From the NCBI GenBank assembly GCA_041743105.1, contig JBGTNI010000010.1, positions 13,589 to 77,588 of the forward strand: a stretch of 64,000 nt of DNA, read 5' to 3'. Shown in pieces: positions 55,528 to 61,542 of the stretch; the stretch's first letter is position 1, and each line of letters starts with the position of its first letter. The DNA comes from Mycobacteriales bacterium. Lineage in GTDB: Bacteria > Actinomycetota > Actinomycetes > Mycobacteriales > QHCE01. The position numbers and the translations under genes were made by a program. Under the pieces are notes generated by a model. That model was not told the origin of the DNA. It did no database searches and saw nothing but the letters and a program-made list of their open reading frames with translations.

Positions 55528-56532
55528 TCAGAAACCTAGCCGGCGGAGCTGGCGAGGATCCCGCTGCCATTCCTTGGCGATCTTGACGTGTAGATCCAGG
55601 TACACCCGCATCCCCAGTAGGGCCTCGATGTGCTTACGGGACGTCATGCCGATCTGCTTCATCCGGGCACCGCGTGCGCCAAGGACGATAGCCTTCTGAC
55701 TGGAGCGCTCTACGTAGACGTTGGCATAGATATCCAGCAGATCGTCCCGACCGGCACGAGGAATCATCTCCTCCACGACCACCGCAACCGAGTGCGGCAG
55801 CTCGTCGCGCACCCCCTCCAACGCGGCCTCGCGAATCAACTCGGCGATCATCACCTGCTCGGGTTCATCGGTGAGCTCACCCGCTGGATACAGCGGCGGC
55901 GAGATCGGCAGTGCGGCAACCAACAGATCGGCGAGTAGGTCCACCTGGTCCCCCGCGGTGGCCGAGACTGGCACGATCTCGGCGAACTCTCCCAGCTCGG
56001 AGACGGCGATCAGTTGACCGGCTAGCTTATCCCGATCGACCAGATCGGTCTTGGTGACCACAACGAAGATGTTGCGACGGTCCAGGCGTGCCAGTTCGGC
56101 GGCGATGAACCGGTCACCCGGTCCCACTGGCTGATCGGCCGGTATACACAGCGCGACAACATCTACCTCAGACCAGGTGGTGCGCACGATGTCATTGAGT
56201 CGCGCTCCCAGCACGGTGCGGGGCCGATGCAGCCCCGGGGTGTCCACCAGTACCAGCTGGGCATCCTCCCGGTGGACGATGCCGCGCACCGCGTGGCGGG
56301 TGGTCTGCGGCCGGTTACTGGTGATCGCGATTTTGCTACCCACCAGGGCGTTGGTCAGCGTGGACTTTCCCACGTTAGGCCTGCCCACAAAACATGCGAA
56401 ACCAGCCCGATGATCTGCCGGGTAACTGGTTGTGAACCCCGAATCGGCTGTGTCTTTTCCGGCCGTGATTTCTTTGGTCACAGACTCTCTGGTCACAGAC
56501 TCTCTGGCTGGAGTGTGTTCCGCTGTACTCAT
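55528..56532 (-). CDS. era: GTPase Era
   Basis: G1 motif GRPNVGKST, DTPG, TKTD and a C-terminal KH domain. The N-terminal extension contains a duplicated RESVT. Confidence 0.9.
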   Translation of the reverse strand: MSTAEHTPARESVTRESVTKEITAGKDTADSGFTTSYPADHRAGFACFVGRPNVGKSTLTNALVGSKIAITSNRPQTTRHAVRGIVHREDAQLVLVDTPGLHRPRTVLGARLNDIVRTTWSEVDVVALCIPADQPVGPGDRFIAAELARLDRRNIFVVVTKTDLVDRDKLAGQLIAVSELGEFAEIVPVSATAGDQVDLLADLLVAALPISPPLYPAGELTDEPEQVMIAELIREAALEGVRDELPHSVAVVVEEMIPRAGRDDLLDIYANVYVERSSQKAIVLGARGARMKQIGMTSRKHIEALLGMRVYLDLHVKIAKEWQRDPRQLRRLGF

Positions 56533-56534
56533 GG

Positions 56535-57872
56535 CTAGCTCTCCGCCGGGCTTGGGTTGTAAGGAGAACTAGTCATGCCCGCTGTGTTTGTTACGTCGGC
56601 CGCCACTTGACGCGAGATCACCACTGTATCCACCCGGTTTCGCCGTCCTCCGGCAGATTCCGCGGTGAGTCGCAGCTCACCGACCTGCGCCGTCGCGCCG
56701 GGGATCGGCACTTTTCCCAACGCGTGCGCGAGTAGGCCGCCGACCGTTTCGGCATCGTCCGTGGGCAACTGCACACCGAACAGCTCCGCGAGATCGTCCA
56801 CCGGCAGGCGCGCGATCACACGGACGGCACCGGAGTCGAGCTGCTCGACGTGGGCGCGCTCATCGTCATACTCGTCGGCGATCTCCCCCACAATCTCTTC
56901 CACAATGTCTTCGATGGTGACCAGGCCCGCCGTACCGCCATATTCATCCACCACGATGGCAATGTGGATTCGGCGAGCTTGCATCTCCCGAAGCAGATCG
57001 TCGATCGGTTTGAACTCAGGAATGAACTCCGCCGGGCGCATCGCCGTGCGCACCAGAGCATTACTGGTGGCCGAGTGATCATGAAGAGCCCGCGCTGCGT
57101 CCTTGAGGTATACCACTCCGACGATGTCGTCGACGTCGGCACCAACGACCGGAATTCGCGAGAAACCGCTGCGCAGTGCCAGGGTCAGCGCTTGCGAGAC
57201 AGTCTTGTCCGCTTCGATCCACACCACGTCGGTACGAGGGACCATCACCTCGCGCACCATGGTGTCGCCCAGTTCGAACACCGAGTGGATCATGTCGCGC
57301 TCGTCGTGCTCAACATCGCCCCGCTGCTCGGCGAGATCCAACAGTTCTCGTAGCTCGAGCTCAGTGGCGAAGGGACCTTCGCGATAGCCCTTTCCCGGTG
57401 TCACCGCGTTGCCGATCAAGATCAGCAACCGCGCTAGCGGCCCCAGCACAAGTCCCAACCGGCGAATGACCCCGGCAAGCGCCAACGCCACTGGGTAGGG
57501 ATGCTGCCGGCCTACCGTGCGAGGGCCCACTCCCACCAACACGAAACTGACTACCGTCATCGCGGCCGCCGTTGCCGCCAACGCGAGCGGACCTAGTCCC
57601 CAGCTTCCAATCGCCACCCATGCCACCAGCAGTGTGGCGGTGAGTTCACATGCCAGCCGCAGCAAAAGCAGCAGACTCACATGCGCGGGTAGCGATCGGA
57701 CCACAGCACCTAGAGCCAGCGCGCCCGGGACGCGGTCGGCCACAAGCTGCGCTACCCGGGTCGGAGCGACTCTAGCGAGGGCCGCGTCGGCCATCGCACA
57801 GCAACCTGCCGCTACGACCAGCGGCACAGTGGCGGCGATCAGCACTGGATCGCTCATGGTTGAGAGTGCCAT
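56535..57872 (-). CDS. CNNM/DUF21-CBS-CorC_HlyC family transporter-like protein
   Basis: N-terminal TM domain, a CBS pair, and the C-terminal CorC region ([19 protein letters not shown]). Confidence 0.8.
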
Positions 57873-58315
57873 GTGCGCAACAGCCGGTTCTGTAACGCGA
57901 ACATCTCGCGCTCTTCCTCCGGATCGGCATGGTCGTAGCCAAGTAGGTGCAGCACCCCATGCACGGTGAGCAGGTGCAGCTCGTCGGCCATGCTGTGACC
58001 TGCTTGCCGGGCTTGCTGCTTGGCAACGGCCGGACAGAGCACCACATCGCCGAGTAGCGCGAATGTGTCGCCTGGCACATGGCCGGGACCACGCTCGGAG
58101 TCGAACTCATCCATCGGGAATGCCAGTACATCGGTGGGACCGGAAGAGTCCATCCACCGCTGGTTCAACTCACTCATGTGCTCGGTATCGATCAGCAGCA
58201 TCGACAGTTCGGCCATCGGGCTCACGCCCATCTCCTCGAGGGCATGTCGGGCGACCGCGACGAGCATGGATTCATCCAGTACGACACCCGATTCGTTGGC
58301 TATCTCGATCGACAT
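57854..58315 (-). CDS. ybeY: rRNA maturation endoribonuclease YbeY
   Basis: [11 protein letters not shown] zinc motif. Confidence 0.9.
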
Positions 58316-58321
58316 CGCGGG

Positions 58322-60535
58322 TCAACCCCTCAAGTCCCGTGCGGCGCGACCACGTTGCGCGCTGAGCCGTCGCGGCAAACGTGCCCGCTCCGCCGTGGTG
58401 TCATCGTCTGCCGCCGAGCGAGCGTCCCACACGGCGTACGCGTCGACGATCTCACCCACCAAACGGTGACGCACGACATCTTCGCTGGTCAGCGATGAGA
58501 AATGCACGTCATCGACATCGCCGAGAATCTCGCGGACAAGTTTGAGACCGCTGTGGGTGTTGCCGGGTAGATCCACCTGCGTAATGTCGCCGGTTACCAC
58601 GATCTTGGACCCGAAACCTAGCCGGGTTAGGAACATCTTCATCTGCGCCGGTGTGGTGTTCTGCGCCTCGTCGAGGAGTATGAAAGCGTCGTTGAGCGTG
58701 TTATGCGTCAACAGGTAATCCTCGGTGACATAGAGTGCATCAGCTGCCGCCACCTGGATGCATACCGTCTCCGCCCGCCCTGCGGGTTCGATGCTGTCGA
58801 TGAAACGTAGCGGCCGGCCGCCACCTTCGGCGGCGTGGTACTTCTTCCGCTTACGGGTGAGACGGAAAGGTTCAACGCCGGCGGGAAGACGGATGTCGAT
58901 GATGTACGCATCATGGCGATAGCCAATCTCACGGCCGCGCACCTGGCCCGATTTCCTTCCCTGCACTGCCCGGCGGCGGACATACGCCACACCACCCAGC
59001 GATCGGACCAGACGGATCACGCCGTCCCTAAGCATTGGCGATGTGGTGGTGTACTGGACGCGGCAGGTCCGGTCGACCTGGATGACCGGTCCACCATCGG
59101 CGTCCAGCAACCCATTGAGGACAGCGAGACGGACCGCAGCGCTGTTGTAGAGGTAAGCATCCGGAATGAACTTCGAGTGTGAACGAGTGCCCAGCAAGTT
59201 CAACGAGCGCAGTGCTCCGGTCACCGGGTTCTCCAGTGTGACGACATCACCAGATGCCCTCACACGGTTGAGGGTGTAGTTCACTCGGTCCTTCCACCGC
59301 ACCTTGACCCCTGGGAGGAGCAGCTCTAGCGCGGAGACGAGTTCCGGATCCTCGGTGGCGAAGGCGGGAGTGGTCGAACCCGTCAGGCAGCCGTCACCAA
59401 GTAGCAGGCCGAGGGCATACGGTTCCATGGGGATCTTTAGTTCGGGGTGGCACACTGGTGCGGTAAGCAGCGGTAGTTCGTATCGACGGGCATGGGCGGC
59501 ACGAAGGTTACCGATCATTTCCTTGGTTTCGAGGACGCGCCAGGGCTTGCCGCGACGGCGATCAGACGCCGTCGCGACCGTCCAGAGGTGATCGCCGCAG
59601 CACAACGTTGAGGCGTCGTCCTGAGCTGTGACGCGGTACACGTCCTTCTCGCCTTGCGGAAACACACCAAGAACCGGGGTCGGTTCCCCGTTAGAGCCGA
59701 TGACGAGATCACCTATTTCCAAGCCACCGATCGGGCAGAAACCGTTTGGAGTCAGTACTTTAGTGAAGATAGGTTGGGCACGTCCCCGCATGTACGCCAG
59801 CGGCGCGACCTCGATGGTTCCGGCTTGCATTAGCCGCGGGATCGAGTCGGCGTCGAGCATGTCGTGCAACGCATCGTAGAGCGGTCGCAGATAGGGGTCG
59901 ATTTTCTCGTACAGCGTCCCCGGCAAATACCCCAGCCGCTCCCCAGCTTCGACAGCGGGGCGCGTGAGAATGATGCGGTTCACCGTCTTGGCTTGCAGTG
60001 CCTGCACCGCCTTGGCCATCGCCAGGTAGGTCTTGCCGGTTCCCGCCGGCCCGATGCCGAAGACAACCGTGTGAGCATCGATCGCGTCCACATAGCGCTT
60101 CTGGTTCAGGGTTTTAGGACGAATAGTGCGACCACGACTCGACAGTACGTTCAGCGTGAGCACATCAGCGGGACGTTGACCGTCGGTGAGTGGGGTAGCA
60201 AGCATGTCGATGGCGCGACGGGCAGCGTCCGGCGTCAGAGGCTGATCGCGCTCGATCAACGCAAGTAACTCGCGAAAGATACGTTCGGCTAAGGCATTCT
60301 GTGCCGGCGTACCGGTGAGGGTAATTTCGTTTCCCCGAACCAGAATGTCGGACGCGACAGCACCCTCGACCACTTTAAGGATCTCGTCACCGGAACCGAG
60401 CAGGCTCATCATGTCGGCCGGGCCTACCACCATACGGCTCTGCTGTGTGGTCCCGATATCTGGAACATGCGGGTGTGCTGCGGCATGGTCGGTAGGGGGT
60501 CGTGCGACAGGTTCTGACATATGGTTGCCGCTCAT
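58322..60535 (-). CDS. phoH: PhoH-like ATPase interrupted by an intein
   Basis: Walker A GPAGTGKT. The sequence ...APLAYMRGR | intein | [15 protein letters not shown]... is interrupted. The ORF is 737 aa, and removing the 360-aa insert leaves 377 aa. Confidence 0.85.
58700..59779 (-). mobile_element. intein (Ala1, ...THN/T junction) with LAGLIDADG homing-endonuclease domain
   Basis: Residues 253-612 of the ORF. It starts AQPIFTKVL and ends YLLTHN, followed by Thr+1. LAGLIDADG-type motifs [10 protein letters not shown] and [10 protein letters not shown] are present. Junction codons were checked base by base. Confidence 0.75.
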
Positions 60536-60585: not shown

Positions 60586-60948
60586 CTACCTGGAGGTCGG
60601 TGCCAGCATGGGCCCCAACGGCCTGCCACCGAGTACGTGCGCGTGGACATGAAACACCTCTTGACCGCCGTGGCGTCCGGTGTTGAACAACACCCGGTAG
60701 CCATCGTCGGCAAGATCCTGCGATGCCGCGACTTCCCCGGCGGCGTGCAGCACCGCTCCGGCAAGCTCAGGGTCAGCAGTGGCCAGCTCGGCGACAGTGG
60801 CATGGTGCCGCTTGGGAATCACCAGTACGTGCACCGGAGCTTTGGGCGCAATATCTGCAAACGCAAGCACCCGATCGGTGTCGTACAGGATCTGTGCCGG
60901 GATTTCCCCGGCCACGATGCGACAGAACAAGCATTCGGCTTCCGACAT
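60586..60948 (-). CDS. HIT family nucleotide hydrolase
   Basis: CLFCRIVAGEIPA and the histidine triad HVHAHVLGG. Confidence 0.85.
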   Translation of the reverse strand: MSEAECLFCRIVAGEIPAQILYDTDRVLAFADIAPKAPVHVLVIPKRHHATVAELATADPELAGAVLHAAGEVAASQDLADDGYRVLFNTGRHGGQEVFHVHAHVLGGRPLGPMLAPTSR

Positions 60949-60998: not shown

Positions 60999-61268
60999 AT
61001 GATGCTTATGAAAAAAGCTGTGACACTTTCTATTGATGAAGATGTGGCTGCGCTTATCCGTGACCGAGCCGCGGCCGCAGGTATATCGGTGTCAGCCTTC
61101 GCGGAAAAGGCCCTCTACGATGCGGGGCGCGCGGCGATGTTCGCCGAACACGCCGCGGGACTAGCGGCAATCGGCATCGACCTGAAAGCTGAACACGCCG
61201 CAAACGAACGTGCACGCCGATTATGGGCCAAGAGCGCCAGCTCTAAGGAAAATCATGCTACGTGGTGA
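60999..61268 (+). CDS. ribbon-helix-helix type II antitoxin
   Basis: KKAVTLSIDEDVAALIRDRAAAAGISVSAFAEKAL fits the RHH pattern. Its stop overlaps the toxin start region. The start may be the ATG at 61008. Confidence 0.6.
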   Translation: MMLMKKAVTLSIDEDVAALIRDRAAAAGISVSAFAEKALYDAGRAAMFAEHAAGLAAIGIDLKAEHAANERARRLWAKSASSKENHATW

Positions 61269-61542
61269 ACTGTGGGCGCGCGGCGACCGGTCGGACACCA
61301 TCGTTTTGATCCTCAGCAACGACATGCTTCACACAACAAGTCCATACGTCGTAGCGTGCACTGTCACACCCGCCGATCCCGGTGAACATTTCCCCGGCAT
61401 CATCCGGCATGAACAGTGGTGCATCCTGCCGTCTATGGTGCTGTGGCTGCCCCAGGCGGCGCTCGCCCGGAAAGTGGGTATCGTCTCGGACGATACAATG
61501 TACGCCGCTCACCGTTTTCTTACCGCCGTACTCGCCCCGTAA
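61255..61542 (+). CDS. MazF/PemK-like type II toxin
   Basis: Trimmed to ATG at 61255. Product: MLRGELWARGDRSDTIVLILSNDMLHTTSPYVVACTVTP...LARKVGIVSDDTMYAAHRFLTAVL. The order of conserved segments matches MazF/PemK. Confidence 0.55.
   Translation: MLRGELWARGDRSDTIVLILSNDMLHTTSPYVVACTVTPADPGEHFPGIIRHEQWCILPSMVLWLPQAALARKVGIVSDDTMYAAHRFLTAVLAP

Follow-up and report, generated by a model that had tools for sequence, protein, structure and literature searches.

A probable class 3 intein with a LAGLIDADG endonuclease domain in the phoH gene of a Mycobacteriales bacterium

In a 64,000-nucleotide stretch of the genome of a Mycobacteriales bacterium (assembly GCA_041743105.1, contig JBGTNI010000010.1, positions 13,589 to 77,588; hereafter the window, to which all coordinates refer), the phoH gene carries 360 additional codons shortly before the part encoding its Walker B motif. 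This raises the question of what the insert is and by which route, if any, it could leave the protein. The evidence collected here points to a full-length intein of class 3 that encloses a LAGLIDADG homing endonuclease and is an ortholog of PhoH inteins already published from mycobacteria, a reading to which we assign a probability of roughly 0.85 on the basis of the sequence and of a structural model.

The interrupted phoH frame and its junction

The gene is organized as follows.

58322..60535, minus strand: phoH (ybeZ-type) precursor, a single open reading frame (ORF) of 737 aa including the intein, with the stop codon at 58322-58324
59780..60535, minus strand: N-extein, residues 1-252, with the Walker A motif GPAGTGKT at 60029-60052 and the C-terminal end LAYMRGR
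58700..59779, minus strand: intein of 360 aa, Ala1 to Asn360 (precursor residues 253-612)
58325..58699, minus strand: C-extein of 125 aa, with Thr+1 as first residue (58697-58699) and the Walker B motif ILLDEAQN within 58658-58699

A preliminary description of this DNA had read phoH as one continuous frame with a 360-codon insert between LAYMRGR and the Walker B region, beginning with Ala, ending in LLTHN and followed by Thr. The translation bears this out: the 737 codons form one frame, and residues 253-612 begin with AQPIFTKVL and end with LLTHN, the flanks being ...APLAYMRGR before and the Walker B segment (an hhhhDE motif), headed by Thr+1, after. The host protein itself is, as judged from its sequence, a YbeZ-type PhoH, having the PhoH domain and both Walker motifs of this P-loop ATPase, with ybeY adjoining its gene.

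In the precursor, the Pfam PhoH match (E 1.3e-88) is broken into two stretches by the insert, the first of which stops at residue 253. After in-silico removal of the intein, the 377-aa product gives one PhoH match (PF02562) covering profile positions 2-204 of 205, with E 1.7e-95. Since the insert places 360 residues between the two Walker motifs, the protein presumably has no ATPase activity before splicing.

The preliminary description had proposed aligning the spliced product with PhoH homologs and surveying genomes for empty alleles. We used the spliced 377-aa sequence as query against one genome per bacterial species, which returned 593 phoH loci, and aligned the best 80. These loci, from Micromonosporaceae, Pseudonocardiaceae, Streptomyces and others, are 64-78% identical to the spliced product; the closest exteins among them (74-78%) belong to Micromonosporaceae and Pseudonocardiaceae, with Phytohabitans flavus and a Micromonosporaceae metagenome-assembled genome (MAG) at 78%. 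All 80 are intein-less and read ...LAYMRGR[T/S]LND... in one ungapped segment through the junction, so the junction is seamless and the intein boundaries are unique. The 80/80 figure is not an estimate of how frequent empty alleles are, because loci were ranked by their best tblastn segment against the spliced sequence, which puts alleles that carry the intein at a disadvantage.

The continuous frame would also be coherent with a stable accessory domain of PhoH that does not splice, and nothing else speaks for such a domain. The 80 uninterrupted alleles with the exact junction, the fold combining Hint and LAGLIDADG parts, the canonical terminal His-Asn followed by Thr and the insertion of the same domain in unrelated phage ATPases (see below) make it extremely improbable.

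Splicing domain, class 3 signature and proposed pathway

Within the insert, we located the four splicing blocks.

59741..59779, minus strand: splicing block A, with the Ala1 codon at 59777-59779
59576..59617, minus strand: splicing block B (including CGDHLW), with His64 (B:10) at 59588-59590 and Trp66 (B:12) at 59582-59584
58727..58777, minus strand: splicing block F (including ETVCIQV), with Cys340 (F:4), the predicted initiating nucleophile, at 58760-58762
58700..58726, minus strand: splicing block G (TEDYLLTHN), with Thr358 (G:5), His359 and Asn360

A comparison of the insert with known inteins, also suggested in the preliminary description, returned matches far stronger than chance would give. 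By sequence, the first 75 residues are similar to the gp41-1 intein (E 8.5e-12) and to DnaB mini-inteins, and the middle part is similar to the endonuclease of PI-SceI (E 1.8e-6). An AlphaFold2 model of the insert, built on 65 homologs, reached a mean predicted local distance difference test (pLDDT) value of 91 and a predicted template modelling (pTM) score of 0.89. When this model was compared to the PDB using Foldseek, the whole insert matched PI-SceI (E 2.8e-18, template modelling (TM) score 0.72) and other endonuclease-bearing inteins, and the Hint part matched the class 3 inteins MchDnaB1 (6rix/6riy) and Msm DnaBi1 (6bs8) as well as gp41-1. The predicted Hint fold, the four splicing blocks, the His-Asn at the C-terminal end and the nucleophilic Thr+1 make the insert, by sequence and model, a full-length intein, in which a LAGLIDADG homing endonuclease is embedded in a Hint splicing domain, between its blocks B and F.

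Class 3 inteins are defined by a non-nucleophilic residue 1, a Trp-Cys-Thr (WCT) triplet at positions B:12, F:4 and G:5, and Thr or Ser at +1 (PMC2807308; also PMC5050341). Ala1, Trp66, Cys340, Thr358 and Thr+1 occupy all these positions here. In the phmmer alignment with a Hint-only, mini-intein version of the insert, Trp66 and Cys340 line up with the W and C of MchDnaB1, and Trp66 also does so with the WCT Trp of Msm DnaBi1. The preliminary description had picked out the Trp two residues after the block B His, the Cys in block F and the Thr at the third-to-last position, and had read them as a class 3 signature; the residues are those named above, and the complete signature, in register with MchDnaB1, supports that reading.

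Then, we evaluated how far these residues are conserved. At least 1,263 homologs of the intein are present in protein databases, and the counts refer to the best 120 of them, all PhoH proteins with 63-79% identity, or, where stated, to an alignment of 65 orthologs. Both His64 and Trp66 are found in 120/120 homologs, Cys340 in 117/117 aligned there, and Thr358, His359 and Asn360 in 115/115. At the +1 position, 96 of 97 orthologs have Thr and one has Ser. The best intein match anywhere, among the matches listed, is 79% identical.

PhoH is a known intein host. The preliminary description did not recall it as such, an impression contradicted by three papers: Novikova et al. (2015/16) counted 21 PhoH inteins, from Actinobacteria and Deinococcus-Thermus, in their list of bacterial intein hosts (PMC4760082); Kelley et al. 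(2018) aligned two PhoH inteins, one from M. fortuitum and one from M. xenopi, as class 3, with the WCT triplet (PMC6195587); and Woods et al. (2020) reported that M. smegmatis has a PhoH intein (PMC7360933). Judging from their descriptions, these mycobacterial inteins (M. fortuitum OBK00716, M. xenopi EID13626, and that of M. smegmatis) share host protein and class 3 signature with the one studied here, which comes from a different actinomycete. Evidence at the sequence level is provided by an allele of Mycobacterium sp. (P0082, locus L109), in which the intein sits at the identical MRGR/...HN/TLND site (slashes mark the intein boundaries) and is 66% identical over all 360 residues, within the same phoH-ybeY-corC-era operon. 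The intein is, thus, another ortholog of a published and widespread PhoH class 3 intein, and not a new one; because such inteins are already published and abundant in Actinomycetota, the finding carries little weight as a discovery.

From the class 3 family (Tori et al., PMC2807308), whose prototype is the DnaB intein of mycobacteriophage Bethlehem, we infer the following splicing pathway. The thiol of Cys340 in block F would attack the bond between Arg252 (Arg-1) and Ala1, giving a thioester-linked block F branched intermediate, with His64 activating and Trp66 and Thr358 shaping the site. The N-extein would then pass by transesterification onto the hydroxyl of Thr+1, forming the block G branched intermediate. 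Cyclisation of Asn360, assisted by His359, would release the intein, and an O-to-N acyl shift would produce a native peptide bond between Arg252 and Thr. The expected product is the 377-aa PhoH, its ATPase core rejoined six residues before Walker B.

Several points weigh against this reading. Biochemically, a class 3 intein is one in which the reaction has to start with the block F Cys as nucleophile, through a block F branched thioester intermediate (PMC2807308), and, according to a 2026 paper, none of the PhoH inteins has been the subject of a published splicing study (PMC13347336). The signature alone is no proof of a working class 3 pathway: when Ala1 and WCT were grafted onto the class 1 gp41-1 intein, mainly cleavage and no productive splicing was obtained (Beyer et al., PMC7664689), so the triplet is necessary and not sufficient. 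Besides, residue 1 varies, being Ala in 85/102 orthologs and Ser in 17/102 (in the 65-ortholog alignment, Ala in 53, Ser in 10 and Cys in two), and position B:7, a Cys in this intein, is occupied by Cys, Ser or Thr in the orthologs. Because some orthologs start with Ser or Cys, the PhoH intein family appears, by these residues, to stand at the border between class 1 and class 3. WCT inteins beginning with Ser1 or Cys1 are mentioned by Tori et al. (PMC2807308).

Considered on its own, this variation is a natural Ala1/Ser1/Cys1 series inside one orthologous family (Ser in about 15%, Cys in few), throughout which WCT is invariant.

On these grounds, another route deserves consideration: a class 2-like mechanism, in which the +1 residue attacks the N-terminal junction directly, or a splicing-dead remnant that leaves phoH inactive or allows cleavage only. 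Ala1 is also found in class 2 (KlbA) inteins (PMC2807308), the grafted gp41-1 was mostly cleaved rather than spliced, and a degenerate relative, the pseudogene intein Arth_1007, is present in the literature. Nevertheless, class 2 inteins by definition lack WCT and their direct attacker is Cys+1 (PMC2807308), whereas the PhoH intein has the whole triplet, without variation among homologs, and Thr at +1. Every catalytic residue is kept in more than 100 diverged orthologs, which is not expected of a dead intein, and the exteins are intact and highly conserved within the conserved phoH-ybeY-corC-era operon. We therefore hold both variants of this alternative to be very unlikely compared with class 3 splicing.

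A class 3 intein could, in addition, serve regulation. The class 3 intein Msm DnaBi1 has been shown to act as a redox- or metal-sensitive conditional switch; by analogy, the PhoH intein might be such a post-translational switch, holding PhoH/YbeZ and the co-operonic YbeY/Era ribosome-maturation module inactive under stress, and Cys340 could be trapped by the adjacent block B cysteines Cys60 and Cys61 (B:6 and B:7). We offer this as a speculative idea and consider it unlikely.

The specific disulfide switch of Msm DnaBi1 was rejected: on our reading of the alignment, the equivalent of its regulatory Cys48 is Val47 here, so that switch is not conserved.

The PhoH intein was also compared with inteins of solved structure. 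The class 3 DnaB inteins Msm DnaBi1 and MchDnaB1 resemble it in Ala1, in having WCT in register, in the Hint fold and in Thr or Ser at +1, but reside in another host protein and at another site (DnaB, instead of the RGR/T position before Walker B in PhoH); Msm DnaBi1 is, moreover, a mini-intein without endonuclease and has Asp at B:7 in place of the Cys found here. The best sequence match among solved structures is wild-type gp41-1 (6qaz), a cyanophage-like class 1 intein, with 33% identity over blocks A-B (E 2e-10). Both inteins have Thr at G:5 and end in LTHN, while gp41-1 differs in Cys1, in Phe at B:12 and Asp at F:4, in being naturally split and in lacking an endonuclease. PI-SceI (the VMA1 intein) has the same two-domain architecture, Hint plus LAGLIDADG, but splices by class 1 chemistry, is 17% identical, comes from a eukaryote and has an additional region for DNA recognition.

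Blocks A-B (intein residues 4-75, window positions 59576-59779) are nearer to gp41-1 (33%) than to the class 3 DnaB inteins (25%, E 1e-4 to 4e-3). This closeness bears on a published suggestion that class 3 inteins originated by convergence, and it could help to find the compensatory changes that were missing in the class 3 conversion of gp41-1. For biochemistry, this class 3 intein would be a convenient system, being full-length, having an intact endonuclease and belonging to a family with natural Ala1, Ser1 and Cys1 variants.

Homing endonuclease, residence and phage relatives

The endonuclease part of the intein comprises the following features.

58832..59479, minus strand: LAGLIDADG homing endonuclease domain, about intein residues 101-316 (Pfam LAGLIDADG_3)
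59387-59422, minus strand: LAGLIDADG motif 1, intein residues 120-131, with Asp129
59090-59119, minus strand: LAGLIDADG motif 2, intein residues 221-230, with Asp228

The domain is matched by Pfam LAGLIDADG_3 (PF14528, E 5e-9), and its modelled fold also matches I-DmoI (Foldseek). As in monomeric enzymes with two motifs, there are two helices, each ending in a catalytic Asp, and an alpha-beta-beta-alpha-beta-beta-alpha pseudo-dimer fold is predicted. Asp228 is kept in 65/65 orthologs and Asp129 in 63/65. The preliminary description had taken the endonuclease to be still present, and the two motifs with both catalytic Asp residues agree with this. From sequence and model, endonuclease activity is plausible, and the free intein would probably cut intein-less phoH alleles site-specifically at the junction between ...CGNGGNCGN and ACNCTNAAC..., which would permit homing.

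Is the element, then, still mobile? Base composition, tested for signs of recent acquisition, gave none: the intein does not differ from the exteins in GC content or in GC content at third codon positions (GC3), the latter being 0.689 in the intein versus 0.687 in the N-extein. Mean identity to orthologs is 68% for the intein versus 70% for the C-extein of the same proteins, and the two are in weak positive correlation (rho 0.30). The equal GC3, the similar identities and their weak correlation suggest that the intein is a long resident, moving only occasionally.

The same values would also fit a real intein whose homing endonuclease is no longer active, inherited only vertically, with precise loss being rare and splicing keeping phoH functional: there is no sign of recent import, the intein and C-extein identities are compatible with long co-residence, and the endonuclease region is less conserved (64% identity to orthologs) than the Hint parts (74-79%). 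On the other side, both catalytic Asp residues and many other endonuclease positions vary little or not at all among orthologs, the 64% identity of the region is itself still considerable, the fold is confidently predicted by the model and the domain has not been deleted to leave a mini-intein, unlike in Msm DnaBi1. The taxonomic spread of the PhoH intein is also patchy, including, among the homologs listed, Pseudonocardiaceae, Streptosporangiales, Mycobacterium, Gaiellaceae, Solirubrobacterales and a Planctomycetaceae MAG. Loss of endonuclease activity is, in our judgement, a real possibility, albeit clearly the less probable one, and an intein with a functional endonuclease that homes from time to time is preferred.

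Relatives of this intein were also found in viruses. Full-length relatives, with 28-41% identity including the endonuclease, are present on 26 viral contigs (IMG/VR, L083-L108) and in 591 phage records, of which 284 are mycobacteriophages with the intein in terminase (TerL) or DNA helicase genes (e.g., Phrappuccino and Alice). According to our reading of the flanking sequences, the phage host proteins resemble helicases, SNF2-like proteins, clamp-loader-like proteins and terminases. The H/W/C/T/H/N set is complete in all 19 aligned viral relatives, and most of the relatives start with AQP(L/I)..., like the PhoH intein described here. That class 3 inteins spread from phages is an idea which citing papers credit to Tori & Perler 2011; viral relatives residing in ATPases and carrying the full residue set fit it. 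The insertion sites differ: nearly all of these viral relatives lie directly after the Walker A lysine (GK followed by T or S), and none of them lies at the RGR/T site of PhoH.

Locally, the phage and PhoH insertion sites resemble each other only in G-(K/R) before T.

One phage protein was considered as a possible phage PhoH source of the intein and rejected. Caudovirales GX15bay (MK557849.1, L111:520-3342) encodes a 940-aa protein annotated as 'PhoH' with a related intein (36% identity); the host protein does not resemble PhoH, is without the RGR/T site, and lies beside the portal gene. The annotation appears doubtful.

Annotation of interrupted phoH genes and locus context

Public gene calls for intein-bearing phoH often start only at the Met in ...YMRGR, which lies four residues ahead of the intein; the resulting proteins have ~475 aa. 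Calls starting at this Met were seen for P0008, P0033, P0049, P0054 and P0082. In the Mycobacterium sp. locus introduced above (L109:2254-4428, GCA_049795835.1), the reading frame continues upstream without a stop for another 248 codons, which encode the PhoH N-extein with Walker A. Judging from such frames, the short calls appear to be a recurring annotation truncation and not a split gene. Gene callers and public records thus often lose the N-extein with Walker A, a point of practical use for annotation.

The genes around phoH were identified on the basis of Pfam matches.

60586-60948: HIT-family gene, upstream of phoH
57854-58315, minus strand: ybeY, downstream of phoH
56535-57872, minus strand: CNNM/CBS/CorC protein gene, downstream of ybeY
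55528-56532, minus strand: era, downstream of the CNNM/CBS/CorC gene

The arrangement HIT - phoH - ybeY - CNNM/CBS/CorC - era is conserved, and the same order is found in the Mycobacterium sp. locus. The Rfam and tRNA scans of the whole 64-kb window found no tRNA gene and no Rfam family above its gathering score. The GC content of the whole window is 62.6%, which is probably lower than usual for Micromonosporaceae and Pseudonocardiaceae, the families of the closest PhoH exteins.

Lastly, two small overlapping ORFs lie on the plus strand between the HIT gene and a DUF1990 gene (window positions 60999-61542). The 89-aa ORF has weak CcdA and ribbon-helix-helix (RHH) matches (E about 2e-3) and the 110-aa ORF a weak PemK/MazF toxin match (E 2e-3), both below the Pfam cut-offs; by these similarities, the two may form a type II toxin-antitoxin pair.

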